64,000 nt of DNA. Origin: Histomonas meleagridis 2922-C6/04-290x. Taxonomy: Eukaryota; Protista; Parabasalia. Under the pieces are notes generated by a model. The model was not told where the DNA came from. It saw only the letters and a list, made by a program, of their open reading frames with translations, and did no database searches. Below, in pieces: positions 29,934-62,059 of the stretch. The DNA is taken from positions 186,001 to 250,000 of the forward strand of contig JAANOX010000243.1 in NCBI GenBank assembly GCA_020184695.1, written 5' to 3'. The position numbers were made by a program, and so were the translations under genes. The first letter of the stretch is position 1; each line of letters opens with the position of its first letter.

Positions 29934-30399
29934 ACTTCACATAATGTTAATTCTTGATATTTCACCTAAAAATAAAGAAACTTTACTCATAATTTTAAAT
30001 TGAAATAACATAAAATCAAAAAAGGAATTTGGAATTTTAGCTAATATGTGAATAAAATTTGGTAATTCTGTATATGTGGGTTTGGACAATGTGTTTAAAC
30101 ATATTAATCCATTTTTCTTTGAGTAAAAAAAATTTTCTTTATCTCAATGTAAAACTTGTTAGTGTGAAAATTTTTGATATAACGATTTCATTACTATTCT
30201 AGACTACTTTCATATGATCTTTTTTAAATAATATTAATGGTTTCTTTGTTATGCTAATAAAAAATAAAGTTCAAATTAAATTAAACAATATTTTTAACAC
30301 CTACATACAGATAAATATACAGTTGCAGGTAGAAATTTATGTAAAGCTAATTATTAAAATCGTGTTTATTCAATATTCTTGTTAACTCTTCATTTATTT

Positions 30400-31577
30400 C
30401 TTTAAAATTACTGTTAATAGAGTTATATTTCATAACACGTCTCATATATTTGAATAATTCAATAAATCAGTATCTTTTGGTAAAATCTATCCGCGAGAAG
30501 TTAATGAAACCGTTGACAACTCGAAAAATCTTAATATGCTTCTTGATGCTGAAAATGCAATGTAAGCCTTTTGAGTTCATATGCAAAAGATATTAAAACG
30601 TCAGTTCAACCGTATTATTATAAGAATGGTGTTAATACTTAAACAAGAACATGGCAAGGAAAGGATAACAGTAATTTTTTCATTGGATTACCGTTCGCTG
30701 AAGTTGAGGACTTCTTGGGTGGAATATCAATTACAGGTACAGTACTAGTTGAATAATATAGCAGGAATGGCAAGATTATAATATTATTGGTTCGTTTGAT
30801 GTATTATTTTTGGAAAAAGCACTTCTAAATGTTAAGGGTTAAAGTCAACCTATTCGTAACTGTTCACTTTTAGGTTATTTTAAACACTTGACAATAAACA
30901 TTATATAATGATTTTAAACCAAACATCTCTTGACGTACAGCAATCACATATTTATATATTACTCAATCATTAATGTAGAAATAAAGATTTTATATGAACG
31001 GTAAACAATTGTTTTGTTGTTCTTTTTTGTAAGTTTTAGATGTTTGATGTAATCGAAAATATTTAAAGTAATCAGTAATACTTTCATTCAATAACAGTGA
31101 ATATTATTTTATATCACTTAAAAAATGTCAGTTACTAAAAGTAGTGTTTAATCTTTCAATCGAGGATGTCTTTGAAGAGTTGGAACAAATTTAAATTCTC
31201 CGAAACAAAGTCAAAGCCAAAACATTAATGTTGTTGTTAAAGGAGTACGGATGCAATATCAAAAAACGTCTGAAGGATATGAGATTGAAAGACGAAGTAT
31301 TGAAACGACAAATTAAACTTTAAATAATCTCGAAAATATGATTCACGACTAAGACTCATTAATTTAAGCGTTAGTTTTATGTTTAGATATAGTAGAAAAT
31401 AATCATTTGATTGTAAATATGTCATAGCGGAAAAAAGAAAATTAATAAAATTATCATGCGATAATAAAAAATGGAGTTAGTTAAAGCAAACACCGACGTT
31501 AGATTATGTATCGAAAATTAATGTCAAAACCGATGGCAATACTCACAATTAAAAATATAATTACTCTCCGACGTTTG
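30400..31577 (+). mobile_element. Older decayed Maverick copy, left half (capsid 3' part, 126-aa ORF and small ORF relics), inverted relative to the intact element
   Basis: 30478-30750 aligns to the reverse complement of the MCP gene (e.g. aatcttaatatgcttcttgatgc, cattggattacc). About 30990-31130 aligns to the rc of the 46120 ORF start. 31125-31250 and 31470-31577 align to the rc of ORF 45665-46080. Confidence 0.85.
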
Positions 31578-33618
31578 ACACACACACACACAGCGCTATG
31601 TGAGCTTCGTGCTACGCACTCGCTCCCACTCGCGCTACATAAACTAAAGGATGAACGGCTAAAATCGATTGAATTATCATAAATCGGTTGGTTTTGATTG
31701 AAAGTAATAAAATATATTTAAATTCATGATGACATTTATATTTAAAATGTGTGAGGCATGAATCCGGCTGAGTTGTTGTTAATACTATGTGGATTTTAGT
31801 GTTTTGTTGTTAATCCTATGTAGATTTTAGTGTTTGGAGCTTAAAGTTGTTATTAACTGAGATTTTGAATGTAAAAAGTATCATTAAAATTTTGAGGGTT
31901 AACTTTAACCTTTTTTTTAACCCTTTTTTTAACCCTTTACGAAACGGAGAAAATGAGCATTTTTTGAATGATTTAACGCAAAAGTTGAAAGTTGATATAT
32001 CGGTAAGAATTTGACGTTAATTCTATGTCGAAAGTTGTTATTAACTGAGATTTTGAATGTAAAAAGTATCATTAAAATTTTGAGGGTTAACTTTAACCTT
32101 TTTTTTAACCCTTTTTTTAACCCTTTACGAATCGGAGAAAATGAGCATTTTTTGAATGATTTAACGCAAAAGTTGAAAGTTGATATATCGGTAAGAATTT
32201 GACGTTAATTCTATGTCGAAAGTTGTTATTAACTGAGGTTTTTGAATGTAAAAAGTATCATTAAAATTTTGAGGGTTAACTTTAACCTTTTTTTTAACCC
32301 TTTTTTTAACCCTTTACGAAACGGAGAAAATGAGCATTTTTTGAATGATTTAACGCTGAAATTGCATGTTTACAGGAGCTACTGTGAGGTTAAAAAAAAG
32401 GTTAACTTTTAGGTTGACTTTTCCTTTAATTTTTTATATATGTTTTTCTGATTTTTGTGTCACTTTTTGTGTAAAGGTCGTTGGTTCGAGATACAGCGAC
32501 ATTGAATTTTTTTGTGGAACCACTTTTTTATAATTTCATATAACATTTCTGTTTTTCGTTTCACGTAACATTTCCGGTAAATCATTTCATATCACATGTC
32601 TTTCCATTTCATTTAACATGTCTTTTCATTTCATATCACATGTCATTACTTAACGGATGCCAAAAATCGCACGTTTACACCGTTTCGTAAAGGGTTAAAA
32701 AAAGGGTTAAAAAAAAGGTTAAAGTTAACCTTTGAAAAAAATTAACGTTCGTTAGTGATACGTTTACGAAAAATAAACGGACGGAGAAAATGACGGTTGA
32801 TAAATTTGAACAACCGCTGAAAAAGTAAGTTGTGAAAAATAAACTTTTTTTAACGGATTTCAAAAAATTTTTTTTAAACGTTTTTCTGTTTAAAATTTAA
32901 CGGAAATTAACGGACGGAGAAAATGACGGTTGAAGTTGTTGTAAAAAATATTTTGAATTATCATTTAATTTAGTGGCAAATGTAAAATTTTTTGAATTGG
33001 TTTTTACAAGTATTAGAATCTTAAAAAAAAATCTGACACGCGTTTCTCGACACAGGAGCATTTTTTTTTCAATGTTGTAAAAGGTAAAGTATTGAATCAT
33101 TTTACAATGAAAAAAATTTAGGTGGTAATTGAACGTTAAGGATGAAAAATTGGCGGGCAGTGATGAGATTTGAATGAGTACTGAAAATGTAAATTTGAAT
33201 GATGCTATCAATTAGTGTCAAACGTAAAATTTTTTGAATTGTCATTGAATTTAGTGGCAAATGTAAAAAATATTTTATGACGGTGTTTATGACGAAGGAT
33301 AAAGTGAACGTTAAGGAAGAACGTTAGAGTCGAACGTTAAGGAAGAACGTTAGAGTTGAACGTTAAGGTAGAACGAGTAAAAAAAGTTCAAAAATAAAAT
33401 TCAATAGGTTTGGGAATCGAACGTAAGACATTAACAAAAAAACGCACTGTACGGGAATCGAACGTAAGGCGTTCATTGAAAAAGTGAAAAACTGACATTG
33501 AAATTTAAAAATAAATTTATCTCGTTATGTGATAGTTATTTTCACATGATTTACATATCAAACGATTTCTTATTGTTTGTATTTTCCGGAAAAGTTATTT
33601 TTTCTCCTTCAAACTCTT
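31578..33618 (+). repeat. Left terminal inverted repeat (~2.04 kb)
   Basis: Near-identical reverse complement of 52441-54475, from acacac-agcgctatgtgagc to ttctccttcaaactctt. Confidence 0.93.
31842..32355 (+). repeat. ~189-bp tandem subrepeat (about 2.7 copies) in left TIR
   Basis: aaagttgttattaactgag recurs at 31842, 32031 and 32219. Confidence 0.9.
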
Positions 33619-34013: not shown

Positions 34014-34053
34014 TTATTAACGGTAAAAAATTTATTTTTATAAATAAAAAATA

Positions 34054-34955
34054 ATGCGAAAAAAAATAATTCGGAGAATATAGATAAAAAATTTGATGAG
34101 ATAGAAGAATTGTTTGATAAATTAGAAAAACAAAACAAAGAAATTTTAGAGAATGCAAAGATAAAACCAATACATGAAAAATTTTTATTTGCTCAAAACG
34201 GAATAACAGCTTTTATAGCGCCGATGGGTTCAGGCAAATCATATCTTTACGTTAAACTCGGAGCGAAACAAGAAGTATTATTTAACGAACCGTTTTTTGA
34301 ATTAATAACTATTTGTAGTACATCCTCAAAATTTGATGAAACAGTAAATACTTATAAAGGAGCATTATAGAAAACGAAAATTTTTACGATAAAAAATACT
34401 GATTTATTAGACTTGATTAATAAATATATTCTGAGAATTTTAAAATATAATAATATTATCAAATATATCAAATCTGTTTTTAAGAAAACGGATGAAGAAG
34501 TAGAAAGATTATTTATGAAATATAATTTGAATAACTCAAAGAAGAAATTAAAATACATTTCTGAAAAGTTAGCGAAATATCAATGGAAAACTTATCCGCA
34601 TAGATGTTTGTTGATATTAGATGATTTTGCTAATCATCCTTTGCTGAGAAGTAAAGAAACGGAGATGTCAAGATTACTTAAAAAACTCAGACACTTTAAT
34701 ATTAACGTTATCATTTGTGTGCAAACAACAAAAAGTATACCAAAAGATATAAAAAGAACTTTATCAGATATTGTATTATTTAATGGAATTGGAAGTGAAG
34801 ACTTTTTTGATTTGTTGAAGGAATCACCAGCGAGTGTTTTTGACGCAAAAGCTTTATGGAAAGAATATAGCAAAATGAAAGACCCACACGCAACCTTCAG
34901 TATTCACATCAAAGCACGAAGAGTAATTATAAATCAAAAAATAAAAGAATCTTAA
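34054..34955 (+). CDS. Packaging ATPase (FtsK/HerA, A32-like); one in-frame TAG and a likely 5' poly-A frameshift
   Basis: Walker A FIAPMGSGKS, Walker B LLILDD, and LRHFNINVIICVQ. ORFs 34110-34370 and 34413-34955 are in the same frame, separated by TAG 34368-34370. Confidence 0.85.
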
Positions 34956-35002
34956 GATTCGGAACGGCTCTCTGAGCCTGAGCTCCTTCGGAGCGAAACA
35001 AT
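34948..35002. terminator. 55-bp GC-rich double hairpin, copy 1 (putative 3'-end signal)
   Basis: GGCTC-TCT-GAGCC (34966-34978) and GCTCC-TTC-GGAGC (34982-34994) between the convergent ATPase and mCP genes. Identical to 46473-46527. Confidence 0.5.
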
Positions 35003-35015
35003 GTTTCATAAAAAT

Positions 35016-35776
35016 TCATTTTTGATTTTGAATCTCACCGACAAATAAATCTTCATCCTGTATGCCTTGAACAGAAATTGTTATATACATTGGATTCAGT
35101 AAATGTACTTCGTGAAGGTTTGCGTCAACGAGTGTCAACTGTATATGTGACAAATCATTAGAATTTATGTCAATTTCAAAATCAGCGTTTGATACAATAA
35201 TCGGAAAAAAAAAAAAAAAAGAGTTATTGATTCTAAGAACGATTTTTGAAATGTTAATGGTTTCGTTTAAATTTCTATAAGAACTTTTTTTCCAACATTC
35301 GACAAAAGATATAATACTGGAGTTGATAAAGTATTTCCGACTGATTCAGCGAATATTTCAAATGTATCTGTACCATTAAATGTTGATGGTATAGGAAGAA
35401 TTTGTGAGTATAACCCTGATATTTGAATTATATTATATGAAGCATTATTTATTGTAAAGGCATTTGAAGAAGTAAATACAATTCTACCGGCTTCGTCGAC
35501 TTCAGACGTAACGCCTGATTCTTGGATGAGAGAGTTTAAAAGTAATATAAACGTTTGAGAGTTTAAGTCAGTGTAATCATTATTGAAATAGTATTTTTTA
35601 CCGTTAATCTGTATAAAATCATCTTTCTCAATAACAACAATAGAACATTTAGTCGTTAACGATGTTACAATCATTTTTGCTTGACGTGTTGGCGGTGACG
35701 GTAAGTTTACGTCAATTCTATTGTAATGTTCAGCGTCGTAGGAAGAAATTGTATAATCAATTACTGCATTATACAT
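35016..35776 (-). CDS. Putative minor capsid (penton, single jelly-roll) protein, frameshifted at homopolymers
   Basis: Beta-rich ORF continues after shifts near 35210-35290 into PIIVSNADFEIDINSNDLSHIQLTLVDANLHEVHLLNPMYITISVQ, resembling the Polinton/PLV penton C-terminus. Confidence 0.6.
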
Positions 35777-35819
35777 TTTATATATTGTAAAAATTTATGA
35801 ATAACATATATAAAAAATT

Positions 35820-36180
35820 CAAGGGTTAAAAAATCACAAAAAGTTAACCTTTCAGTAACTCGAGCAAACATGCAATATTCGCGTCAAATCATTCGAAAAA
35901 CGCTAATTTTCTCCGTTTCGTTGAGGGTTCAAAAAAAGGGTTAAAAAATCACCTTTGAAAATTAAAAGGTACTTTTTACATTCAAAACCTCAGTTAATAA
36001 CAACTTTAAGCTCCAAACACTAAAATCCACATAGGATTAACATTAAATTCTTTCCGATAAATCAACCGTCAACTTTTGCGTTAAAGCCTTCAAAAAATGC
36101 TCATTTTCTCCGTTTCGTTGAGGGTTCAAAAAAAGGGTTAAAAAATCACCTTTGAAAATTTAATGATACTTTTTTAACAT
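35820..36180 (+). repeat. Internal diverged copy of TIR subrepeats
   Basis: Contains cattcaaaacctcagttaataacaactttaagctccaaacactaaaatc and aaaatgctcattttctccg, same orientation as the right TIR (about 54180-54230 and 53815-53835). Confidence 0.85.
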
Positions 36181-36339
36181 TTTAATTTATGTAAAATGTT
36201 TTTTATTGGTGTTTGGATGTGTGTTATTGGAACCATTTACGTTTTAAATTCAATCGTAAATACAATGATAAAAATATATGTTGTATTTAACGAAGAGGAA
36301 GGAGATAACAAAGATATCCGTGAAGATATTAAAAAGGTC

Positions 36340-37172
36340 ACTTTACTCTTAAAGTACAACAGTTTTTTTCTGTAATTATAAAGAAATACTAATTGAATAA
36401 TAAACCTGCAATATTTCGGATAAATATTATTTTTACCGTTTGTTGTAAATCTAATGTTAAATGTTGAGCCATCAGTTGGCGCGTTATATAATACAGTAAA
36501 AAAAAAAAAAAAATCACCTTTGATGCCAATGAATCGTCTCTTCGAATCACTAAATGAAGCATGAAATTCTAAATACTCTCTGTTCCAAACATTATTAAAA
36601 GTCATTACTTCCTTTTGAGTTGACAAATAACTTATACTTTCTGACGTTACATCTTGATTTAAGAATTTCAAAAAACTTTCTAAATTAGATGTAGTACTTC
36701 CTGAATCAACAATCGCAAATTTTTGCGACAAGATTTTGGCTTTCATCCGAGCCTACATAAGTACAAGCAAAATATAAATTGCCTGAGTCTTCGTATTCAT
36801 AAGATAATCTATAACTCGCAAATGAATTATTAAAACTATTACAAATTGACGTTAAAATTTCAAATAAAGTATTTTGCGCCATAACTTGAATTTTTAATGA
36901 TACGTGGATTAGGTGAAGAACCACTGACGCTTTCAGGTTTAGTTACTTCAAACTGTAATGAGAAAACGTGAGCGGTCGGCGTTATATCTAATCTTCTTAT
37001 GCCAATAGCTTTATTCTGTGACGGAGACTCTAACCAACGTTGAGGATAACGGAAAGTATAACCATTTTGAGGATTTAATACTTCATACTTATCTAAATCA
37101 AGATTTGTATAATTTTTGTTCAATCGGTAACTGAGACGCAGTTGTTGTAAATTGATTTTCAGTTTTATACAT
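36340..37172 (-). CDS. Element beta-rich protein (possible second structural protein), frameshifted
   Basis: ORF pieces 36860-37123, 36706-36924 and 36237-36746 appear to be one gene starting at ATG 37172. The 3' end is approximate. Confidence 0.45.
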
Positions 37173-37188
37173 TTTTATCTTATTAAAA

Positions 37189-37413
37189 ATGTCAAATTCA
37201 CAGTTTGAAAAAATTGAAAATATAGTAAGAGCATTAATGAATAAAAAAAACACTATTGTATACAGTAATCAATCAAAAAAATCTAATACATTATCAAATA
37301 GTATATGTACATTACAGAAAAATAGTTATGACAAATCATTTGTTTTCACTTACGGAAGAAATCATGTTGTAATATCACCGTTAGATAATAGCATAAAAAA
37401 ATTTAAAATATAA
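37189..37413 (+). CDS. Small element hypothetical protein
   Basis: 74-aa ATG ORF, head-to-head with ATG 37172 (16 bp apart). Confidence 0.45.
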   Translation: MSNSQFEKIENIVRALMNKKNTIVYSNQSKKSNTLSNSICTLQKNSYDKSFVFTYGRNHVVISPLDNSIKKFKI

Positions 37414-37483
37414 CAAAAATAATATTAAATGTGATGATATAAATACTGGAAAAAATAAAAAAAAAAATGCATATATAATTGAA

Positions 37484-40400
37484 ATGTTCGGTAAAATAAA
37501 TAAAGTATTGGATTTATATAAACAATTCGTAAAAATCAATGAAGATAGTAATAATGTTTCAATTACAAATTTAATTATTGATACCATTAATGGTTATTCA
37601 ACAGATGATTTTGCATTAAAAAATCATACACATGAAATAATTAATAATGATTTAGCTATTAATGGTAGTCTTGTCGCAAATTCCATTAACGGATATTATA
37701 TTTCAAACAGTATTGGAGGAGGTTCTAATTCAACAGTAAATATTCCATCAATCGCGACTATTAAATCAGATGGAGTCATGGAAGTCGGTGAGTATATTGA
37801 TTTTCATTATAGAGATGATTATAATAAAGATAATACGTGGAGAATTAGAGCAATAACCGATACATAAAAAAAGATGGAAGTACAATTAGTTTTAATAATA
37901 ACGGTAATATAACAGTAAATAGTATTAATGGTATTTCTACAAATGATATATCACTAACGACGCATAATCACGACGACAAATACTCTCCGTTAAATCATAT
38001 TCATAGTGATTATCTAACTAATGCTAACTTAGAAAGTATTAATCATAAATTAACAGGAATATATTATAATGAAGAAACGATTACTAATGAGGAAGAAGAA
38101 GAGGATATTACTGAAAAATATACTTTAATAAATCAAGATCTTATAGTTAATGGTACGATTAATGATATTAACACAGAAGAAATAGCTTTAGTTCGAGACG
38201 GAATTTTATCTACCGGAGACGTTATATCATTTGAAAACGGAGTCAGTATATCAACTTATGATAATACTACTGATGAAGGAATTACTGAAAATAATTTATT
38301 AATAAATTTTTCTAATGGTAATAGTATCATGTTAGAGGATAGCGGACATACTTATGGTATAATTAATAATGAAAGAGAAATAAAAACAGAATACTATTTA
38401 ACAAAACAAATGATCATTGATGATGAAGACATACAAGAAATTTTAATGGGACCTCCAGGAGAAGACGGTGAATCCACATATAAAGAAAGTTTTGTTGATA
38501 GTATATTTGATATAATAGATACATTTTTTACAGCTGCTGATACAGCATATACTATAGCTCAAATTGTAAGTCAAATAAAAAATTTTGGGTGGGCAGGATT
38601 TTTATATAATAGTTTTGGGATTAATGTTATGAAGTCAAAAGGTTATTTACCGTTACCATCATTGAAATCAGTAGTTTTTGATGAATATGATATATCGACA
38701 GGTGGAATGTTGGAAGATTTAGAAGTTCCAAACGCTGATGATATTGACCAAGAATTTAATGAATATAATTATTTAATAAATCTATTCCCAGAAATGAATA
38801 TTATATTTAAAAATTTGAAGTATTATTATAAAGACGTCTCTAAAGGTCAAAGAACAAATGAATTAGGTCTTTTTATTAGTCGATTGTCAGATATATAAAC
38901 GTTTCGTTAATCATAAACATGATAATTATTTAATAGCTGCTGATTTAAATAATTATACAGGAATAACTTATCATAAAGATTTATTAGAAACTAATGAAGA
39001 GGAGGAAGAAATATATGAAATCTACACGTCAATTAATCAAGATTTAAAGGTTAATGGATCGCTGATCTCCGATAGCTTTAGCTGTCGCGGTAATGTTGAA
39101 TGTACAACAATTAATGGTATTGATTTAGATGAATTATCTGTTATCAGTAATGATATATTTAATATTAACAATAAATTAACAGGTATTACTTTTAATAAAG
39201 ATTATGTCGAAACAAATGAAGAAGAAGATATTTATGAAATTTACACGTCAATTAATCAAGATTTAAAAAAATAAATGGTAATATAGAATGTACAACTATT
39301 AATGGTATTGATACTAATAACTTTTCTTTAACAAATCATACTCACAATCAATATTTAACTAATGATAATTTAACTGATATAAATAAGGCTTTAACAGGAA
39401 TATCATATAATGAATATGGCGATTGGACTAAGATTAAACATGATTTATTAGTAGGTAATGATATTTCATGTAGAATATTGACAGCAAGTCGTAATATCAA
39501 TATTGATTGTAGTAAATATTCAGATGATACAAATATTTATAAAGGATTGTTTATTCATAGAACTAATGCAATGCCGGGTGATTCTATTAGGATGGAAATA
39601 GGTGTATTGCCTAATGGAGATGATTGTAGCGTAATAGAACATTACGTAGGTTCTGATGATAATATTGATACTTGTCTAAGATTCAAAGTTTGTGATGGCA
39701 ATTATGTAAGTATATATAAAAATGGTAATATTAGTTGTAATAGTATTAATGGAATTGATACTAATAATATTTCATTAACAACACATAATCATGATGATAA
39801 ATATTCTTTATTAAATCATAATCATACAGAATTTAATAATGCTATTACTATTAATGGTGAACTTATTGTAAATAGTGATATATTTATTGATGGTAATATA
39901 AATTGTATTTCTATTAATAATATTTCTGTTGATAATTTCTCATTAAAAAATCATACTCATGATACTATTGATAATGATTTAAATGTTAATGGTAATTTAT
40001 ATTGTGAAACAATTAATGGAAAAATACCTGAAGAATTCTCATTAAAATATCATAATCATGACGATAGATATTCTTTAACAACACATAATCATGATGATAA
40101 ATACTCTTCGTTAAATCATACTCATAATGAATACTCATTAACAACACATAATCATGATGATAAATACTCTTCGTTAAATCATACTCATAATGAATACTCA
40201 TTAACAACACATAATCATGATGATAAATACTCTTCGTTAAATCATACACATGAAATTATTAATAATGATTTAGCTATTAATGGTAGTCTTGTCGCAAATT
40301 CCATTAACGGATATTATATTTCAAACAGTATTGGAGGAGGTTCTAATTCAACAGTAAATATTCCATCAATCGCGACTATTAAATCAGATGGTGTAATGGA

Positions 40401-41278
40401 AGTTGGACAATATATTGACTTTCATGATAATAATGATTTAAATAGTGATTATTCTTGGAGAATAAGAACTGCCGGCAATGTTATGTATTTCGGTAAACTT
40501 GATAATAATGATGGTGTTATTAGTTTCAATGGAATTGATGGTAATATAAATTGTATTTCTATTAATGATATACCTGTTAATAATTTTTCTTTAAATACAC
40601 ATACTCATAGTTATAATGATATTACTGATAAACCATCAACATTTACTCCATCATCTCATACTCATCAACCTGCTGATATTGTTCCTTATCAAAATTCTGT
40701 ATTAAAAACACGAAGATTTTTTTAGATTTCGTTTTTCATAATAATTCAACAGAAGCACCAGGTATTTATACTTGGAGAATAGCATCATATGAAAATGAAT
40801 TAGGATTTTGGCATATATCAGATGATACATACAGAAAAAGCTATTATATCAGATTGAATGGTTTTTGATATTGGCTCTCCTGTATTTATAACAGGTAACG
40901 TATATAAATTAAATAATAATAATTATACTTCAGTTACTGATTCTACTAATTGTATTCCTAGTGTTAAATCATCAGGAACTTATAAAGAATTTATCGGAAT
41001 TTGTACAGCAAAAACATAACTCTGGTGAAATTTTTTTTTTTTTTTACACAATTAAACAAGACATATCGATTAATCAAGATACAATTGATTTTGCAACTCA
41101 CGGAGATTATTATTTTAAAGTTACTGATTCATCAAAATATAATATTGGCGATACAGTGCTTTATGATGAAACTATATTAGATGACGAAACACCATTAACG
41201 GCAAAAATAAATAATATGATTATTGGAAAAGTCACCGCTATTATATCTGATTCTCTGTTAGCTGTATTTCGCTCTTAG
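37484..41278 (+). CDS. Large fibre-like protein with HxH repeats and phage tail-fibre motifs, split by frameshifts
   Basis: Fragments 37484-37867, 38329-38898, 39478-40725 and 40961-41278. Motifs THNHDDKYS, LKNHTH, KSDGVMEVG(E/Q)YIDFH twice, ITDKPSTFTPSSHTH and GPPGEDG. Confidence 0.6.
40075..40250 (+). repeat. 63-bp (21-aa) tandem repeat in fibre gene
   Basis: ttaacaacacataatcatgatgataaatac starts at 40075, 40138 and 40201. Confidence 0.92.
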
Positions 41279-41598: not shown

Positions 41599-41694
41599 TT
41601 TATATAAAATAAAAAAATAAAAAAAATAAAAATTAACTTTAAAAAAAATTAATGCTAATTTTTAAAAAAATTTATTTTTTTAATTTCTATAAAA

Positions 41695-42657
41695 ATGTTA
41701 ATGAAAAATTCTTGTTCTGCTCTTGTTTCGGAAAATCAAACGTCTGCTTTATGCTTAACTAAATTAAATAATATAAAGATTGAAAATAAAATTGATGATT
41801 CAGTAAATGATTATGCAAATACTATTAAAGAATATAAAAATAAAATTTTGAATCATCAGCTTCCCGTTGAAGTTAAATTAGAAAGAAATCAACAATATTT
41901 AGAACAAATTTTAGAATTTGCAAAATCAATTCCTGCTGTAAGCATTCCTGAATTAACGCTTGATGTTTCGGTCAAAAGTTTTCCAAAAATTGAGATTGAA
42001 AAAAGTGATTCAACAGAAATAAAAGCGTTAATTAGAAAAATTAACAGAAAAACACAAACCTTTTCTTGCGATCACTCAGCGCTCGAACGTAAAGCATTAA
42101 CATATAATGCTGATGCCTTAAAATTACGTAAAAGGTCTGAATTAAAGATAATTGATGATTTTTATAAGGTATTAGCCGAATATTGCTGGCGAATTAAAAA
42201 TAAAGATATAAGAGGAAAGGAATTTAATGAGTTTAATATTGAAATGTATGATGTTGATAAAGTTATTGAAGCTTCAATGAATTTTTCGGCTGAAGTTTAT
42301 AATTTCAACGCTAAGTATCATTCACTGAAATGTGATAAATGTGAAAAATTGATGAAAGAATATGAATATTCAGTTGAAGATATAGAGGAAAGAAGAAAAG
42401 AAGAAGAAGAAAGATTAAAAGATGAAATTAAAAGAATTCAAGAAGAAGTTGAAGAAATAGAAGATATTAATGATTTCGTTGAAGAGTATTTTCCAAATAA
42501 AGAAAGAATTTATGTTATGTCAATCGTTAAAATGTGGAAAGCAGTTAAAAAGTGCATGATTCGAAAAGATGAGATTAAAGGAATGCTTGAAGAAACAGGA
42601 AATTGGAAAATAACAAACGTTCATAATACACTTTATGCTACAAAAATAAAAGAATAA
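41695..42657 (+). CDS. Element protein with coiled coil and small C-terminal domain (possible DNA-binding)
   Basis: Intact 320-aa ORF; Glu/Arg-rich coiled coil followed by a ~60-aa compact domain. Confidence 0.6.
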   Translation: MLMKNSCSALVSENQTSALCLTKLNNIKIENKIDDSVNDYANTIKEYKNKILNHQLPVEVKLERNQQYLEQILEFAKSIPAVSIPELTLDVSVKSFPKIEIEKSDSTEIKALIRKINRKTQTFSCDHSALERKALTYNADALKLRKRSELKIIDDFYKVLAEYCWRIKNKDIRGKEFNEFNIEMYDVDKVIEASMNFSAEVYNFNAKYHSLKCDKCEKLMKEYEYSVEDIEERRKEEEERLKDEIKRIQEEVEEIEDINDFVEEYFPNKERIYVMSIVKMWKAVKKCMIRKDEIKGMLEETGNWKITNVHNTLYATKIKE

Positions 42658-42723
42658 AGAATTAATTTTAGAAAAAAATTAAACTTAGTTTTAAAAAAAA
42701 TTTATTTTTTTATTTTTGATAAA

Positions 42724-45009
42724 ATGCCAAAAAGATTGAGCAAAAAAGAAGTTAGAAGTTTATTTGAAAAATACGGATACACTTTACCGAAAAATTTTGA
42801 TTATAGAAATACTTCAACACCGCTTGAAGTTTATGACGAACAACATCAAAGTTATAAAAGATTGAGTGTTAATCAATTAAGATATAAAATATCAAGAGGA
42901 AGATCTGAATATATTCCGGAAGAAATTAATAATTTAATGAATCTTCCTTTAAGTGATAATGAACCGAAAAATAAAGATTCATTCGAACGTTTCAGTAAAA
43001 AGAAAGATGGATTTTTCAAAAATGAATCAGAAGATTTTAAACGTGAAGTATTTAATTTAACAAATAAATTGACAAAAAATTTAATGAAACAAAAAGATTT
43101 TACGTTTGAAAACAAATCAAGTATTGATACATTTCTTTCTGCTTTGATGTATGCGATTGAAACATGTGGTACTAAAATTAATAAAGATATTAAAATGACT
43201 TTAATTGATGAAGACGGAAGAGAACAATATTTGCATGCAAATAAAAATACCGTTGAATTTTTACGTGCTGGATTAAGTAATGAAAGAATCATTGGTGATA
43301 CAAATGATGTTGTATTTGAACATATGTTATTTATTAAAACCATTCATTTTGAATTTAAAGATTTCAAAAAAGGAAAGAGAATAAATCCAGGATTCTTTCC
43401 TTATATCAACACGTCAGATATTGATTTAAGAAAATTTGGAATATTTACAGACGTTAATGATTCTAATATAAATGAATCATGTTTAATTCAAGCATTTATT
43501 GCTTCAGAAGTATTGAAAGAAGATGAGTTAGAATTACTGAAGAGCTTTATTCAAACGCGAACTGTTCCAAGAAGTGAGTTAAAGAGAATTTCTGATTTAT
43601 TGAAAATCAAAATTGAAGTCAAAATATTTTATCCAGAAACCAAACATACACGCGTAAAGGTTTTTGGTGAGAATTACAACAGAGAAATAAAATTAATAAT
43701 TATCGAAGACCATTATATGCTAAATTCTAAAGTTAATGTTTCAGAATGTTATATAAAGAATTATGATAAAATAAATGCTGATTCAAGATTTAAAAATCAT
43801 AACAGAAAAATGATGTTATTAAAGTTTGACGACAAAAGATATTCATTTTCTAAAAAATGTTTGGGTATAAGAAGTTTGATTTATTTAATGATACAACATA
43901 AACTTTTAATGCCAATGAATCAACAAACAATAAATAAACTTTCATGGAGTTATAAGAAATCAAAAAATAAATCTTTTAACTCTTATAGAAAAATATTTGT
44001 TACTGATAAAAAACCTTTATCGATTTATTCTAAAAAAGTTAATCAAACAAAAAGTTTCTTTGGATACATTCCAGAAGAAAATGAAATCCCGGAGAGATTA
44101 AAAGAACTTCAAGAAGTTATTGATTCGTTGAAATTAAGAAAAAGAATTAATGTATCAAGATATTATAAATTTTCTGAATTAATGCAAAAGATAATGTTTG
44201 AGTTCGGATGTTTTGATAATGTATATTCATTTTCTGGAGAGATTGCAGATAAAATAAGATCTGAAATTCATTTTCCAAAAATTATTTGGAATAAGATTTA
44301 TTTAAAACAAAAACTTTATTATATTGATCAATGCGGAGCGTATATGTCAAGTGTTCAATCAATTCCTGCTGGATTACCTGATGCTAACGGAAACTTTAAA
44401 GAAGAAAACACAAAAATAAAAGAGTTAATAGAAAAATTATATGATGCAAGAATGAAAGCCAAATTATTGGGAAAAGATAAATTATCAACAACACTTAAAT
44501 TTTTGATGAATAGCTGCTGGGGATTTTCGATTCAAAAACCAAAAATTATAAAACATAAATTTGTAAATAACGTTAATAAGTATATTGATGAATTCGCACC
44601 TTATGTATTAAAATACACTTATAATGCAGATGGAATTTCAGGGTTTGTTGATACAATTAATCCTTATGTCGAATGTTTCACTTATCCACAATTTGCAAAA
44701 AGTGTATTAGATAATTTTAATGAAAAAATGAATCTTATAAAAGATCTTGTGAAAGTTTATTACTCAAAGGTTGATTCTGCGTTAGTGTCGGAGGAAGATT
44801 TTAAATTACTAAAAGATAAAGGATTTATTGGTAATGAACTCGGTAAGTTCAAGATTGAGCACGTTTTCACTGAAGTGTATTTTAAATCTCCCGAAAATTT
44901 TATCGGTAAGCATGAAGACGGAAGTTATTACTATCACTGCACGCCAAAAATAAAACAATACTGTGAAAATTCAAGTGATCCGATAAAGAAATTAATGAGT
45001 ATGAGCTAA
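42724..45009 (+). CDS. Divergent protein-primed family B DNA polymerase
   Basis: Intact 761-aa ORF. Motif A YYIDQCGAY, motif B KFLMNSCWG, motif C YYSKVDS, then LGKFKIE. Confidence 0.8.
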   Translation: MPKRLSKKEVRSLFEKYGYTLPKNFDYRNTSTPLEVYDEQHQSYKRLSVNQLRYKISRGRSEYIPEEINNLMNLPLSDNEPKNKDSFERFSKKKDGFFKNESEDFKREVFNLTNKLTKNLMKQKDFTFENKSSIDTFLSALMYAIETCGTKINKDIKMTLIDEDGREQYLHANKNTVEFLRAGLSNERIIGDTNDVVFEHMLFIKTIHFEFKDFKKGKRINPGFFPYINTSDIDLRKFGIFTDVNDSNINESCLIQAFIASEVLKEDELELLKSFIQTRTVPRSELKRISDLLKIKIEVKIFYPETKHTRVKVFGENYNREIKLIIIEDHYMLNSKVNVSECYIKNYDKINADSRFKNHNRKMMLLKFDDKRYSFSKKCLGIRSLIYLMIQHKLLMPMNQQTINKLSWSYKKSKNKSFNSYRKIFVTDKKPLSIYSKKVNQTKSFFGYIPEENEIPERLKELQEVIDSLKLRKRINVSRYYKFSELMQKIMFEFGCFDNVYSFSGEIADKIRSEIHFPKIIWNKIYLKQKLYYIDQCGAYMSSVQSIPAGLPDANGNFKEENTKIKELIEKLYDARMKAKLLGKDKLSTTLKFLMNSCWGFSIQKPKIIKHKFVNNVNKYIDEFAPYVLKYTYNADGISGFVDTINPYVECFTYPQFAKSVLDNFNEKMNLIKDLVKVYYSKVDSALVSEEDFKLLKDKGFIGNELGKFKIEHVFTEVYFKSPENFIGKHEDGSYYYHCTPKIKQYCENSSDPIKKLMSMS

Positions 45010-45098
45010 AAAAAAATTTATTTTTCGGCTGATTTTGCAAAATAAAAAATTAAAGCTAATTTTAAAAAAATTTATTTTTTTATTTTCTATAAAATAGA

Positions 45099-45662
45099 AT
45101 GAGTTGGATTGATTGTGTTGCAGATGCTGATTATCAAATATTCACAGAATTTCCGTTTCAAATAAGAAGAAAATCAAATAAAAGAATCATTAGCGAACAT
45201 GTCGATGAAACACGAGGCGGATACGTTCAATGTCGCTTAAACGGCAGAAAATATCTTAAACATAGAATAATAGCAGAACAATTTATACCAAATCCTGAAA
45301 ATAAACCTTTTATAGATCATATTAATCATGACAGAACAGATTTTCGCATTAATAATCTCCGCTGGGTTTCTTCATCAGAAAATAATTCAAATAAATCATC
45401 ATACCTTGGGAAAGATTATGAATATTTTGATGAAATTAACGAAGATTCAATTGAAGTTAGAGAGTATAACAATTATCTATTTGAGGATTATTACTATGAC
45501 AATGAAACAGATTCGTTTTACTTTTGGAACGGTTTGCAGTTCAGAAAATTGAACATTTGCTATGATAAGCGCGGTTATGCTTTAGTTTATGCACGCGATA
45601 TTAATAATAAACAAGTTCAGATTTATTATGCAAAATTCAAAAGAATTTATGGTTTCGACTGA
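45099..45662 (+). CDS. HNH endonuclease (HNH_3/homing type)
   Basis: HRIIAEQFIPNPENKPFIDHINHDRTDFRINNLRWVSSSENNSNK. Confidence 0.9.
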   Translation: MSWIDCVADADYQIFTEFPFQIRRKSNKRIISEHVDETRGGYVQCRLNGRKYLKHRIIAEQFIPNPENKPFIDHINHDRTDFRINNLRWVSSSENNSNKSSYLGKDYEYFDEINEDSIEVREYNNYLFEDYYYDNETDSFYFWNGLQFRKLNICYDKRGYALVYARDINNKQVQIYYAKFKRIYGFD

Positions 45663-46549: not shown

Positions 46550-48165
46550 TTATCTTGCTCCTCCGGCAATTATCTGCTCGATTGATGCGTTGGTAATTTC
46601 AATTTGACTTCTACCGTCAGGCTTCATTGCTCGAACTTTCAACAGTGCATCTTCAAAATAAATTCCAGTCGGTGCGATAAAGTTTACATTTTTCATTGCG
46701 GTATTTGCCAAACGATCGCCAAATAATTCAATCTGTACCGTCCCAGTTGTTGATATTCCACCCATAAAATCTTCTCCCTCAGCAAATGGTAATCCAATGA
46801 AGAAATTACTGTTATCTTTACCGTGCCACACTCGTGTTTGGGTATTAACGCCAGTATTATTATAAGTATTCTTGAAGTAATACGGTTGAACAGAAGTTTT
46901 AATATCTTTTGACAAAGAACTCAGCAAGCTTCCATTAAGATTTACTGCATCAAGAAGCATATTAAGATTTCTTGGATCATCAACTGTTTCGTATGCTTCT
47001 CTTGGATAAATTTTACCGTCAATATTAAAACTATATCTTATTTGAGGATTTAAGAAGCATGTTCGTGAATATTGTGATTCTCTGAATACAGTAAACATAG
47101 TATCACAATGTTTAAGTCCTATTGTTGCTGCTGTGTTAAATGATGTTGGAGCACTTGTTGAATTACTTCCGAGTGGTTGTGTGAAATCTCTTACTTGACA
47201 AACGTGAATTGGAAATAGCATCGGAACTTGAATATATTTTGCAGCAAGAGCATTAAACACATCCATTTTCAAAAAGATATGTTGCAAGCTTAATTTTAAC
47301 ATCTTTTGTAACTTGGCTATTGCAAACAAATTTTTTGAGGTGCATCCATTGTTGCGTAAGTTGTTGAACCGCTTCCTGCTGTTGCTTTAATGTTGCTCTT
47401 TACTGATTCATTAACATTTCTAAATCCAAGGTCACATAAATAATCTCCTTCAACTACAGCTTTTGCAGCAACTAATGATTCATGATCGCATACAGGAGCA
47501 ATAACAATATTTTGATATGAAGGCATCAGTTCGATTGAAAGCTTGCCGCTCCAGTTAGGATAATATCGCATATTAAATAACATTAAGAAATAACTTAATG
47601 GAATTCTTAATGGAATCCTGACTATAACTTCTTTAGATGCAGTAATTGCACTAAAGTCACAGTAAACGCCAGGAACCATTGAATCATGAGCTCTGATTTT
47701 ATCAATAGTTGCGAAACAATCATTACCGGCTTTAGCTTCATCAGATAATGAATTAGAAAGCATGAACCATTCATACCTTGCGTTATGAACGTCTTGAATT
47801 TTATCTGTGTTTGAATAAATTCTGTATTGGTCTATAGCATCGCATGAACATTTATAACCGACATAATATTCTTTAAACAAAAGATTTGATTGTGACGGAA
47901 CGGTAATTGGTACTTCTTGTTCTAAAGTAATATATGAATTATCTAAACCAATAATCTTAAATCTATCCGTGAAAATGTCAACGTATGTTGTATCTCCTTC
48001 GTTTATATCTCCAACATTGCCGTAAGAAGTAGCTGTCGTGTATTCATAATTGCCTGGAATGATTTCAGAAGCTTTAACTGCTTCATCAACTTCATTATAC
48101 CAATCTTGAAGGTTTCCAGTCATTGCATCAATAACATTTGGTTGTTGATTTTGTGGTGCAAACAT
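46550..48165 (-). CDS. Putative major capsid protein (double jelly-roll), ~537 aa after removing two homopolymer insertions
   Basis: ORFs 47317-48165 and 46550-47329 join. Size and beta-rich motifs (LDNSYITLE, VRIPLRIPLSYF, RYYP..SGKLSIEL) fit a Polinton MCP; position within the Maverick supports this. Confidence 0.65.
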
Positions 48166-51158: not shown

Positions 51159-52314
51159 ATGAGTCTAAACATTAATAGAGAAATTGACAAAACACATTTT
51201 AAAACTTACAGTCACGTCAAAAAACACGTGCAAAATAAATTTCCAAATGTTAGTGAAAAGAAAATTAAAAAAGTAATATCAAGGAGATTGAAGGATAAAT
51301 TTATTAAAACAAAAGATATAAAACCTTATATGATAAAAATATTTTCAACTGTTCCAAATTGTTGGTTTCATGATTTATACGATAATACTAAAGGAAAAAC
51401 TCCTCGTTATTGGCATGTGTTTATTGGCACAAATAATAGATATGTTTATTGTCTGCCGTTAATGTCAAAGTCAGCTGGAGCAGTTCATGAAACATTAAAA
51501 CGATTTATTGAAAAATTCCATCCGGTAAAATTAACGTCAGATGAAGAACCAGCATTTATTGAAAAAAATAATTTAAAACTTCTTTCTGATAATAAAGTTG
51601 CCGTTCATACAATATCAGATAAAAACCATTCGTCTTTAGGCATTATTGATAGATTCATGCGAACAATAAGAGATATGAATACTCCAACGGAAAAAACTCT
51701 AAAAATCAATGACATGATGAAAAAAATACACATTTATTACTCCAGAAAGAATGAAAAAGTTTCTGAATATTTATAATAATACTTACCATTCAGCCATCGG
51801 TTGTTCTCCAAAAAGAAATGTTTGATAATAAAGATTTAGAAAAAAAGAATATATATTTAAAAGTTTAGAATCTTCTGAAAAAAAAAAATGTATTAAGAAT
51901 TTAATTCTTCCTGTTGGCTCTTTTGTACGCTATATATTACCGCGTCATAATGGCATAACTAAAAAAAGATTTCAAATAAGTCGTGAATGTTATAAAATTG
52001 ATGAACGGAAAGGAAATATGTACGTTTTAATTGCTCAAGACGGAACGGTAATTACTAAACCAAGATACAAACTAATACCGATTGGTAAGAATAAACCAAA
52101 TAATATTAAATGGGCGTCAACTATTCCTGGTAAATGGGTTGGTTCTGTTGAGTCAATTTTATCATTTAATCCTAAAACAAATAAGTATAAAGTACTTTTT
52201 ACCGTTCCTGGGCAACGTTCATATCAAGATGAAATTCCTGCTTCATTTCTCCGAGGCAATACTCCTCATAAACAATCAGAAATTGAAAGAGAATTTTTTG
52301 CTAAACATAAATGA
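51159..52314 (+). CDS. Retroviral-like (rve) integrase, frameshifted
   Basis: WFHDL, LTSDEEPAF and LGIIDRFMRTIRD core; the C-terminal fragment 52018-52314 is beta-barrel-like. Confidence 0.85.
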
Positions 52315-52440: not shown

Positions 52441-54475
52441 AAGAGTTTGAAGGAGAAAAAATAACGTTTCCGGAAAATACAAACAATAAGAAATCGTTTG
52501 ATATGTAAATCATGTGAAAATAACTATCACATAACGAAATAAATTTATTTTTAAATTTCAATGTCAGTTTTTCACTTTTTCCATGAACGCCTTACGTTCG
52601 ATTCCCGTACAGTGCGTTTTTTGTTAATGTCTTACGTTCGATTCCCAAACCTATTGAATTTTATTTTTGAACTTTTTTTACTCGTTCTACCTTAACGTTC
52701 AACTCTAACGTTCTTCCTTAACGTTCGACTCTAACGTTCTTCCTTAACGTTCACTTTATCCTTCGTCATAAACACCGTCATAAAATTCGTCATCAAATAT
52801 TTTTTACATTTGCCACTAAATTCAATGACAATTCAAAAAATTTTACGTTTGACACTAATTGATAGTATCATTCAAATCTTGTTTTCAGTACTCATTCAAA
52901 TCTCATTACTGCCCGCCAATTTCTAATCCTTAACGTTCAATTACCACCAAAATTTTTTTCATTGTAAAATAATTCAATACTTTACTTTTTACAACATTGA
53001 AAAAAAAATGCTCCTGTGTCGAGAAACGCGTGTCAGATTTTTTTTTAAGATTTCAATACTTTTAAAAACTTTTTCAGAACTCATTCAAATTCATTTCCCG
53101 CCAATATTTTTCAGTACCTATTCAATTATTAATCGTTTTGCCACCAAATTAAAAAAAAAAAAAAAAAATTTTACATTTGCCACTAAATTAAATGATAATT
53201 CAAAATATTTTTTACAACAACTTCAACCGTCATTTTCTCCGTCCGTTAATTTCCGTTAAATTTTAAACAGAAAACGTTTAAAAAAAATTTTTTGAAATCC
53301 GTTAAAAAAAGTTTATTTTTCACAACTTACTTTTTCAGCGGTTGTTCAAATTTATCAACCGTCATTTTCTCCGTCCGTTAATTTTTCGTAAACGTATCAC
53401 TAACGAACGTTAATTTTTTTCAGAGGTTAACTTTAACCTTTTTTTTAACCCTTTTTTTAACCCTTTACGAAACGGTGTAAACGTGCGATTTTTGGCATCC
53501 GTTAAGTAATGACATGTTATATGAAATGAAAAGACATGTCAAATGAAATGGAAAGACATGTGATATGAAATGATTTACCGGAAATGTTACGTGAAACGAA
53601 AAACAGAAATGTTATATGAAATTATAAAAAAGTGGTTCCACAAAAAAATTCAATGTCGCTGTATCTCGAACCAACGACCTTTACACAAAAAGTGACACAA
53701 AAATCAGAAAAACATATATAAAAAATTAAAGGTTAAAGTTAACCTAAAAGTTAACCTTTTTTTTAACCTTACAGTAGCTCCTGTAAACATGCAATTTCAG
53801 CGTTAAATCATTCAAAAAATGCTCATTTTCTCCGATTCGTAAAGGGTTAAAAAAAGGGTTAAAAAAAAGGTTAAAGTTAACCCTCAAAATTTTAATGATA
53901 CTTTTTTACGTTCAAAACCTCAGTTAATAACAACTTTCGACATAGAATTAACGTCAAATTCTTACCGATATATCAACTTTCAACTTTTGCGTTAAATCAT
54001 TCAGAAAATGCTCATTTTCTCCGATTCGTAAAGGGTTAAAAAAAGGGTTAAAAAAAAGGTTAAAGTTAACCCTCAAAATTTTAATGATACTATTTACATT
54101 CAAAACCTCAGTTAATAACAACTTTAAAAGGGTTAAAAAAAAGGTTAAAGTTAACCCTCAAAATTTTAATGATACTATTTACATTCAAAACCTCAGTTAA
54201 TAACAACTTTAAGCTCCAAACACTAAAATCTACATAGGATTAACAACAAAACACTAAAATCCACATAGTATTAACAACAACTCAGCCGGATTCATGCCTC
54301 ACACATTTTAAATATAAATGTCATCATGAATTTAAATATATTTTATTACTTTCAATCAAAACCAACCGATTTATGATAATTCAATCGATTTTAGCCGTTC
54401 ATCCTTTAGTTTATGTAGCGCGAGTGGGAGCGAGTGCGTAGCACGAAGCTCACATAGCGCTGTGTGTGTGTGTGT
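52441..54475 (-). repeat. Right terminal inverted repeat (~2.04 kb)
   Basis: Reverse complement of the left TIR, with differences in subrepeat content. Confidence 0.93.
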
Positions 54476-54480
54476 GTTTG

Positions 54481-54556: not shown

Positions 54557-54767
54557 TCAACCTGACCTAACTTGACTTAACCTAACAATAGAATTCGAGA
54601 TAGCATTTCATTTTGCGAATTAAATGAAATATTTTTTGATAGAAGAACTCCACGAATCAATATTTCTCTCTACTTCTTCGAGCCTTTTTTATTATTTCTT
54701 CGTATTCTCTGATATTATTTCTCGCTTGCTCCCATCGATCCAAAGTTATGCCGGAGTCTCTATGATC

Positions 54768-55022
54768 TTAACATGTTCTATTCTTTAGCTCTCTGTAGAT
54801 TGTTGGTGGTATTGATTTTGCAACTTCAATAAATACTGGTTTTGCATTTTCAACTGTACCAGGTAATTGTTTTTCATTTAATACTTCGTGGACTTTGTCG
54901 TTGATGGAATCCATGATTTCTGCAACAGTAAAAGCATATTTAAAAGAGCAATACTCCGCCACAAAATGAACAAGCTTTATATGAATATACTTTTCGAGGA
55001 ATTTTGGCGCCGTTTGACTCAA
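54768..55022 (-). CDS. Hypothetical ORF, unknown origin
   Basis: 84-aa ATG ORF with less AT bias than its surroundings; no recognisable motif. Confidence 0.25.
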   Translation of the reverse strand: MSQTAPKFLEKYIHIKLVHFVAEYCSFKYAFTVAEIMDSINDKVHEVLNEKQLPGTVENAKPVFIEVAKSIPPTIYRELKNRTC

Positions 55023-55439
55023 ATGATATATATAATGATATATAATGACAAATTCCTGCCACCTTCACCGCTGTCCAGAAGCATTTTTGACTGATTTCCA
55101 CCACATATTAGTAATTTAATTAAATCTCCATGTTTTCTCATTTGAAGGACACATTTGCGATGCATTCACATAACCATTTGAGTTGCAAACGTAATATTTT
55201 TATTTATTATGATAATTAAAACATCGTTACAAGTTTTTGTGGTGAACTCCTCAGCTGACATATTTATATAGTAAATAAAAAAATCGAATTTTATATAAAT
55301 AATAAAGTTTCTTTTTCCTGAGGTTTGAGGCATTTTTGGCTTGTATCATAAGGTGGCAGGATCCTGTCATCTTCGCCACAAGCCTGTTTCTTAACATGTT
55401 TCGGGAATATTGAAATCTCATATTCTTCAATTTTGGATC

Positions 55440-56010
55440 CTTTAAATTTCTCAGATATCTCTTAACTTCTGCGGTGGTATATGGGAATAATAACTGCCGT
55501 TTTCATGTTTGCCAATCCAACAAGCAGCAGATTTGGAATATATTTATGTAAATACATGTTCAATGATTTTTGATATAGCGCAGAATCTACTTCATAATAA
55601 TAGACGTTAACGAAATTCTTTATTATATTCATTTTGTTATTAAAATTTTCTAAAACACTTTTCGAGAATTGAGAATAAGTGAAATTTTCAACATAAAAAT
55701 TTACAATATCAACAACAAATCCCGAAATTTCGTCTGCGTTATACGTGTATTTTAATACATAAGGCGCGAATTCATCGATATATATATCAACGTTATTTAC
55801 AAATTTATGTTTCATAACTTTTGGTTTCAGTATTTAAAAACCAAAACATGAATTTAAGTGTGATTGACAATTTATCTGTTCCCGATAATTTGGCTCTCAT
55901 TCTTGCTACATATGATTTTTTTATTAGCTTTTTTTTATTAGCTCTTATATTATGGTGTTTTCTTCTTTAAAGGTTGCCATTAGAATCAAGCAATCCAGCT
56001 GGCTATAGCT
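55440..56010 (-). pseudogene. Decayed pPolB of the older Maverick
   Basis: KHKFVNNVDIYIDEFAPYVLKYTYNADEISGFV...YYYEVDSA, close to the intact pPolB C-terminal half. Confidence 0.88.
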
Positions 56011-56199
56011 GTTATAACAAGTAACCTTAGAAAATTTATTTACTGTTTTATAACTCCAGCATTATTTGTTATATATATTAATATTCATAAATTTTAATAA
56101 ATTTTGAATGATTTAAATTTGTTCTAGTATTTATAAATGATTTTAACATATTAATTACATTATCTGTAAATATATTACTTGCAATAAATGATTGTATCG

Positions 56200-56460
56200 A
56201 ACAAGACTCACTGATAATCACATTATCGAAATCGAGTTATTTGACGATAGATATTCAACAATTATATTTGCACGACCATATTTATATCGATTATATTTTA
56301 AGCAGGCATTAGTTATAACTATGTAAATTTAATCAATAAAAAAAATGATATTTAATGAATTTATATCAATATTAATCAAGATTTAACAATGAATGGTAAT
56401 ATAGATATCAATACTATAAATAATATATCTACTGATAATCATAATCATAATATCAGTGAT
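56200..56460 (+). pseudogene. Fibre-gene relic
   Basis: attaatcaagatttaacaatgaatggtaatatag and gataatcataatcat resemble fibre gene segments near 39250-39340. Confidence 0.4.
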
Positions 56461-62030: not shown

Positions 62031-62059
62031 AAGCTTTAATTGGGTGTATCATGAAAGAA

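Follow-up and report, generated by a model that had tools for sequence, protein, structure and literature searches.

A reduced pPolB-like DNA polymerase lacking exonuclease and TPR1 in a Polinton/Maverick-like element of Histomonas meleagridis

How much of a family B DNA polymerase that is primed by a protein (pPolB) can be lost before it stops being one? The question is raised by a gene of the parabasalid Histomonas meleagridis. The window, meaning the whole stretch of DNA that was analyzed (64,000 nucleotides of contig JAANOX010000243.1), contains an intact open reading frame (ORF) at 42724-45009 on the + strand, which codes for 761 amino acids (aa) with 0 internal stops and whose start codon matches the MPKR- start of its closest full-length homologues. 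An earlier note, made from the letters alone, had described the ORF as a short pPolB with noncanonical motifs, and the motifs it named are there: DQCGAY from aa 535, NSCWG from aa 596, and YSKVDS from aa 680. The motif C it gave for a relic of the gene, YYEVDS, is also found, in the longer form YYYEVDS.

44326-44343, + strand: motif A, DQCGAY; Asp535 is invariant and Tyr540 is the steric-gate position
44497-44523, + strand: motif B, KFLMNSCWG; Lys592 and Gly600 are invariant, and the Tyr is changed to Trp
44761-44778, + strand: motif C, YSKVDS; the first Asp is missing, and the invariant Asp684 lies at the hairpin turn of the model
44884-45006, + strand: degenerate KxY region and short thumb; 78 aa after Asp684 versus 129-179 in full-length relatives
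about 55454-56215, - strand: polymerase relic of the same family with stops and frameshifts, without TPR1; motif C is YYYEVDS

A Pfam single-sequence scan of the 761-aa protein gave one match only (E 0.094) and no DNA_pol_B_2 match, and sequence searches with it found 0 PDB sequences, 0 PHROGs, and 0 phage records. The consensus YxDTDS with both aspartates is absent as well, the first Asp being gone in 40/40 members of the TPR1-less family to which the protein belongs (N in 30, K in 9, W in 1). Is it a PolB at all? When the ORF was shuffled 5000 times, a loose three-motif pattern, composed after seeing the sequence, turned up once; stronger evidence comes from phi29 polymerase, to which the protein is tied by a fold match and by a profile comparison. 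The full-length model (mean pLDDT 88.0, pTM 0.76) has phi29 polymerase as its best solved match (Z 17.1, rmsd 4.3, 274 aligned, mostly model residues 427-761), and in this match the palm and fingers fold of a PolB is recognizable. Among the matches listed, the next family scores 12.9, and all PDB fold matches of the full model are PolBs. The top viral match in Foldseek is the mavirus pPolB, whether the query is the whole model (E 6.8e-13) or the N-terminal one (E 1.4e-4). Profile comparison, in which a profile of all grades of the family reaches phi29 polymerase at E 1.7e-13, aligns the retained Asp535 and Asp684 with Asp249 and Asp458 of phi29. The proposal that the protein is not a PolB was rejected on the fold matches to PolBs and this profile link. 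The earlier note was thus right to call it a PolB that keeps the essential aspartates, which are invariant in all 77 proteins compared. A few short pieces matched the polymerase ORF in sequencing runs presumed to be RNA, a result that speaks neither for nor against expression.

The protein is more than a polymerase, and its layout can be read from the model and the alignments.

42724-45009, + strand: reduced protein-primed PolB polyprotein, 761 aa; N-terminal domain, terminal-protein (TP)-like domain, vOTU, linker, palm/fingers/TPR2, and short thumb
42724-42918, + strand: small N-terminal alpha/beta domain, aa 1-65; kept across the reduced family, no Pfam match
43096-43359, + strand: TP-like domain, aa 125-212; four strands with helices in the secondary structure of the model
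43300-43302, + strand: Thr193, predicted linking residue, in a disordered loop ahead of the last TP-like strand
43387-43923, + strand: vOTU-like cysteine protease and its extension, aa 222-400; OTU-type fold matches
43480-43482 and 43711-43713, + strand: vOTU catalytic pair, Cys253 and His330, both in 77/77
43924-44298, + strand: linker remaining after the exonuclease deletion, aa 401-525; FFGY motif, helices into the palm, no Exo motifs
44371-44409, + strand: TPR1 deletion site, aa 550-562; a short loop in place of about 80 residues
44536-44673, + strand: TPR2-like insertion, aa 605-650, kept; beta-alpha-beta-beta in the model

The TP-like and vOTU domains account for the N-terminal half of the protein. 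Together with the TPR1 deletion and the replacement of YxGG and KxY, they are additions beyond the earlier note. The aa 1-65 domain may have a DNA-binding role, a guess made from similar domains. The topology of aa 125-212 and one residue make this stretch a candidate terminal protein: the disordered loop (aa 188-195) precedes its last strand, Thr193 comes after Gly191, and the column of Thr193 holds Ser, Thr, or Tyr in 71 of the 77 proteins. For PRD1-like terminal proteins, Krupovic et al. (10.1101/2024.03.18.585575) locate the linking residue in the loop that leads into the last strand. When aa 81-425 were modeled separately (pLDDT 92), there was no TP or PAD chain among the best 50 of 48,161 chains, a result that alone is no exclusion. 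The vOTU assignment comes from OTU-type proteases occupying ranks 1-11 of the 48,161 chains (VIA-align), at modest Z scores of 4.3-5.3; the best of them is itself low (Z 5.3, rmsd 2.7, 88 aligned).

The exonuclease is gone. About 180 of its residues are deleted relative to full-length pPolBs, and YxGG has become FP at aa 517-518 in the linker. The failure of the earlier note to find Exo I, II, or III upstream is explained by a real absence: neither the 761-aa protein nor any of the 52/52 reduced proteins among the 77 compared has these motifs, and the Exo-bearing span measures 92 aa in the window protein versus 259-457 in full-length relatives. There was no exonuclease chain among the best 50 matches for the N-terminal model, which alone is no exclusion either. 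Neither outcome that the earlier note had named against itself, a complete exonuclease domain or a protein other than PolB, was seen. A degenerate exonuclease at aa 340-400 was considered and rejected, as this stretch aligns to the vOTU extension, upstream of Exo in full-length relatives.

TPR1 is regarded as a signature of protein-primed polymerases, required for terminal-protein binding. It too is missing: the distance from motif A to motif B is 57 in the 761-aa protein versus 131-144 in full-length relatives, and the model has a short hairpin between motif A and the fingers. The missing stretch corresponds approximately to phi29 residues 261-350 in the comparison with the profile of all grades (E 1.7e-13), which include the TPR1 loop at residues 304-314. 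TPR2 is near full length, as the span from G600 to D684 is 76-94 in the TPR1-less family versus 90-103 in full-length relatives. The window protein is pPolB-like in its predicted working, yet two defining features are missing from it.

Are these the scars of one bad copy? A single-sequence search gave 236 proteins from 7997 candidates, and 1351 matches came from a profile search against 1.84 billion representatives; of these matches, the best 150 were used. From 149 profile ids and 11 single-sequence ids, a length of at least 690 aa left 76 proteins, which with the window protein make a comparison set of 77. Three grades can be told apart among them. Grade I (25/77, 957-1363 aa) has the Exo motifs (all three in 23/25), a motif A-B distance of 131-144, and motif C as YxD(T/C)DS, and Pfam DNA_pol_B_2 matches 21/21 of the grade I proteins scanned. 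Grade II (12/77, 755-900 aa, A-B distance 86-131) lacks the Exo motifs and the first motif C Asp, and DNA_pol_B_2 matched 0/10 of those scanned. Grade III (40/77, 698-833 aa), which includes the window protein, has an A-B distance of 48-58 and no Exo motifs. The Exo-bearing span, 259-457 aa long in grade I, shrinks to 82-170 aa in grade II and to 87-116 aa in grade III. Grade II (P0220, P0230, P0232, P0236, P0252, P0255, P0263, P0268, P0288, P0291, P0314, and P0317) keeps TPR1 without the exonuclease, P0220 having only part of TPR1.

What is kept is as regular as what is lost. Cys253, His330, Asp535, Lys592, Gly600, and Asp684 are present in 77/77, as is an aromatic residue (Tyr or Phe) at the steric-gate position 540. 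Down to about 30% identity, 40/40 grade III proteins keep both aspartates that bind metal, the lysine for the dNTP, and the aromatic at the steric gate. YxGG, which is GGR in 25/25 grade I proteins, gives way to F/Y-P in grade III, and KxY decays. By these alignments, the loss of the exonuclease and TPR1 and the replacement of YxGG and KxY are family traits, common to 40 of the 77. Decay or sequencing error in one copy was rejected as the source of the motif changes, as they are common to the whole family.

A tree was built on 358 shared columns, with the Exo and TPR1 regions removed, from the pPolBs of the comparison set, which does not include those of mavirus, Tlr1, and transpovirons. In it, a branch with support 100/99 separates grade III from all the others, and grade I is supported at 100/100. 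A tree with grade II as one clade has an AU p of 0.84 and scores about 2 log-units above this tree. The root is assumed to lie with the exonuclease-bearing forms, from established pPolB biology; if it does, one exonuclease loss followed by one TPR1 loss would explain the grades. Scans of IMG/VR gave 2 loci with long pPolB ORFs when P0256 was the query and no locus with alignment A1, P0230, P0184, or P0263.

Selection was estimated from 40 coding sequences: the copy in the window, plus 39 taken from a set of 63 metagenome loci. The 17 disjoint close pairs, which have mosaic alleles in common, are not independent, and do not include the window copy, give a palm dN/dS of 0.11, with 0.13 in the vOTU, 0.19 in the linker, and 0.33-0.36 in the N-terminal parts. 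When all 447 pairs with pS 0.02-0.6 are taken, the values are 0.44, 0.71, 0.54, and 0.41-0.45, respectively. In the human-gut family (P0007-P0120, L001-L032), alternative alleles of the TP-like region are seen within the N-terminal 250 aa, with a variable tandem motif at about aa 65-100; these alleles are shuffled among copies whose vOTU and palm are nearly identical.

The gene has an address that also bears on its function. It lies within a complete 22.9-kb Polinton/Maverick-like element at 31578-54475, between inverted repeats of about 2 kb that are 95-99% alike in their main blocks, and it is the sole polymerase gene between them.

31578-33618, strand not applicable: left terminal inverted repeat, opening with (AC)7; target duplication GTTTG at 31573-31577
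34044-34955, + strand: A32-like packaging ATPase, in two frames in the window copy; Pfam Pox_A32 E 1.5e-9
41695-42657, + strand: DUF3839 protein; Pfam E 1.4e-25
45099-45662, + strand: HNH endonuclease; Pfam HNH_3 E 1.9e-13
46550-48165, - strand: conserved gene of about 540 aa, in two frames in the window copy; 61-72% identity to intact ORFs of related loci
51159-52314, + strand: rve integrase, in two frames in the window copy; Pfam rve E 3.6e-8
52441-54475, strand not applicable: right terminal inverted repeat; target duplication GTTTG at 54476-54480

Long terminal inverted repeats, a 5-bp target duplication, an rve integrase, an A32 ATPase, and a pPolB are features of a Polinton/Maverick, and the element has them all. 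The gene at 46550-48165 is presumed from its size and context to code for the major capsid protein, and its homologue in locus L014 has Histomonas meleagridis relatives at 61-65%. No protease family match, as for a maturation protease, was found among the element ORFs scanned. Several element genes are frame-split in the window copy, and the polymerase gene is intact. In two DNA runs, 35,000-39,000 short contigs of varied likeness match a 19-kb part of the element, which fits a many-copy element family, the contig figures being no copy number.

The enzyme can now be compared with the known systems. Full-length Polinton/Maverick pPolBs (TP-vOTU-Exo-palm; 25 long homologues) come from the same kind of element and have an alignable TP-like domain, vOTU, palm, fingers, and TPR2, but the reduced family is shorter by a median of about 325 aa and is without Exo, TPR1, YxGG, the first motif C Asp, KxY, and part of the thumb. 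The polymerase of phi29 shares the palm, fingers, and TPR2 fold, with the catalytic Asp pair in register, but it has Exo and TPR1, its TP is separate and unrelated, and it has no vOTU. The TP-vOTU-palm enzyme of mavirus, as reported, is like the reduced family in its fused TP (in the reduced family a candidate one), intact vOTU, exonuclease remnant, and missing first motif C Asp, and both have an rve integrase and a separate SF3 helicase, for the reduced family in sister elements. Exonuclease-less TP-vOTU-palm enzymes of the mavirus and Tlr1-like kinds are described in sections of 10.1101/2024.03.18.585575 as missing the first motif C Asp and having TPR1 and TPR2, and grade III differs from them, and from the other truncated pPolBs reported, by having no TPR1. 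The pMVRE clade is likewise defined in PMC13215967 by truncated pPolBs that retain the palm, TPR1, and TPR2; the window protein, without TPR1, falls outside that definition. The main text of PMC13215967 makes no mention of parabasalids. Tlr1-like and transpoviron fusions of pPolB and SF1 helicase, as reported, share the vOTU and palm, the absent exonuclease, and the changed first motif C Asp, but they have the fused SF1 helicase and TPR1, and the reduced family has neither. Among the matches listed, the nearest sequence relatives of the reduced family are exonuclease-bearing polinton-type pPolBs, suggesting an exonuclease loss separate from that of mavirus. A literature search lying mostly outside subscription papers and supplements found no TPR1-less pPolB; parts of PMC12721341, PMC10120064, PMC12289875, PMC3511435, 10.1101/2024.03.23.586382, 10.64898/2026.06.19.733378, and 10.64898/2026.10.13.758929 were also used for comparison.

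What would such an enzyme do? The catalytic residues are kept despite the lost exonuclease and TPR1, so it is likely a minimal, probably error-prone, protein-started enzyme. Our best explanation, to which we give about an even chance, is an active, terminal-protein-primed, nonproofreading, and poorly processive replicase that needs a helicase. Opposite the (AC)n end, the palm would attach the initial dNMP to Thr193, a residue of its own TP-like domain, with slide-back. As primer and enzyme are one polypeptide, tethering of the primer would substitute for the grip of TPR1. The vOTU would then release the TP by cleavage, a step put forward as a hypothesis in part of 10.1101/2024.03.18.585575. 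Opening of the ring around the DNA and of the template tunnel would leave extension poorly processive and reliant on an SF3 helicase supplied in trans by sister elements or on host factors. Errors would escape proofreading, so that the fidelity may well be low. The fold, the invariant residues, the close-pair dN/dS, the kept TPR2, the hydroxyl at the linking position, the SF3 helicases of related loci (a parallel to mavirus), and the standing of the gene as sole polymerase speak for a replicase; the absence of a helicase from the complete copy, the weaker all-pair dN/dS, and the tentative TP assignment count against it. Loss of the first motif C Asp occurs in several active PolBs, according to passages in 10.1101/2024.03.18.585575 and PMC5695915. 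Point changes in the phi29 TPR1 loop already impair TP binding and stabilization of the primer terminus, as reported in PMC6921018, and the portion of PMC4974454 on processivity has TPR1, the thumb, and the exonuclease domain helping to build the processivity ring and the strand-displacement tunnel. Given these roles, it is doubtful that the reduced enzyme could copy 23 kb.

The main alternative is that the enzyme only primes or patches ends, placing the first nucleotides onto the terminal protein, after which an AEP-SF3 primase-helicase or the host replisome would copy the bulk. We consider this possible but well short of probable. What is lost (exonuclease, TPR1, YxGG, KxY, and half the thumb) serves to hold duplex DNA, and what is kept (TP, vOTU, and the dNTP and metal ligands) is what priming needs. 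TP-primed patching of ends is known from Streptomyces, as treated in part of PMC3273824. A separate SF3 helicase gene is present in loci L030 (10715-12823), L043 (1816-3630), and L052 (2226-4778), with fragments in L022 and L026; a gene or fragment is thus seen in 5/63 related loci, most of which are too short to span an element. The helicases of L030 and L052 have an N-terminal domain with DxD and SxH motifs (DxD in 16/16 homologues), which we take to be AEP-like, and both loci encode the reduced polymerase as well as the AEP-like-SF3 protein. However, the AEP assignment comes from motifs alone, and the domain has no Pfam, PHROG, or PDB sequence match; no AEP motif was seen by eye in the L043 helicase; and the complete element of the window has neither a helicase gene nor an AEP gene. 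Also speaking against a mere primer are TPR2, an insertion for processivity and strand displacement that is near full length, and the rarity of the canonical PIP box, which occurs in 1/40 grade III members and not in the window protein.

A dead or merely DNA-binding palm, with the gene kept for its TP and protease and a full-length pPolB of another family replicating the element in trans, is very unlikely. All polymerase motifs do deviate from consensus and there is no Pfam DNA_pol_B_2 match, but the metal aspartates, dNTP lysine, and steric-gate aromatic stand in every one of the 40, and the palm has the close-pair dN/dS of 0.11 given above. Unlikely, too, is a specialized nonreplicative role, such as making the (AC)n ends by synthesis that needs no template or that adds repeats, or the filling of gaps after integration. 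An open active site, altered fidelity residues (motif A Ser changed to Gly and motif B Tyr to Trp), and the simple-repeat ends would suit such a role, but the element has no other replicase, and ordinary slide-back priming, the mechanism reviewed in part of PMC4974454, fits short terminal repeats.

A lost exonuclease and a missing first motif C Asp have precedents in mavirus and Tlr1; the new part is that a whole family invisible to Pfam lacks TPR1 as a conserved trait. Either the fusion of primer and enzyme makes TPR1 dispensable or priming and elongation are divided between enzymes. The full, exonuclease-less, and exonuclease- and TPR1-less grades form a natural deletion series for the functions of the pPolB parts, and they also bear on the published idea that a helicase offsets the loss of the exonuclease. 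Since the family has no Pfam match, surveys of Mavericks in gut protists that are based on pPolB likely miss it. One could even consider, as a tentative and rather doubtful idea, that in a widespread family of endogenous viruses of gut protists a phi29-type replicase has been reduced to a self-cleaving TP-protease-palm primer synthetase, free of TPR1 and exonuclease, that caps ends only, leaving the bulk copying to a primase-helicase or the host.

Other observations concern the element and its surroundings. An 83-nt A/T-rich motif, possibly a shared promoter, lies at 41612-41694, 42642-42724, and 45012-45094, ahead of the DUF3839, polymerase, and HNH genes. In DNA runs X1 and X2, a joint from 41682 to 45130 starts inside the first of these motifs and deletes DUF3839 and the polymerase, so polymerase-less derivatives of the element appear to exist. 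The stretch 37156-41278 holds a long gene of fibre-like type whose His-rich repeats are made of THNHDDKYS units; it is spread over several frames in the window copy, and in L026 and L030 its product has about 1200 aa. The 188-bp repeat region that belongs to the inverted repeats recurs internally at 35799-36181 in a diverged form (about 74%). Element genes appear a second time, inverted, at the contig ends of L014 (1-1932) and L022 (1-45); these copies could stem from long inverted repeats that contain genes, from head-to-head elements, or from misassembly.

The intact element is set within a nest of relics, and decayed pieces of related elements (ATPase, capsid-like, KilA-N-like, polymerase, and integrase) lie at 30350-31577 and 54696-63989. 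Fragments at 59801-61005 on the - strand presumably resemble a DDE transposase of the pogo/Tc5 kind, the two ORFs scanned there having no Pfam match at E 0.05. The flanking eukaryotic genes include a kinase, 14-3-3, and eIF3c, and a host gene at 17683-22575 carries 69-bp and 483-bp repeats, which we take to be BspA-like leucine-rich repeats.
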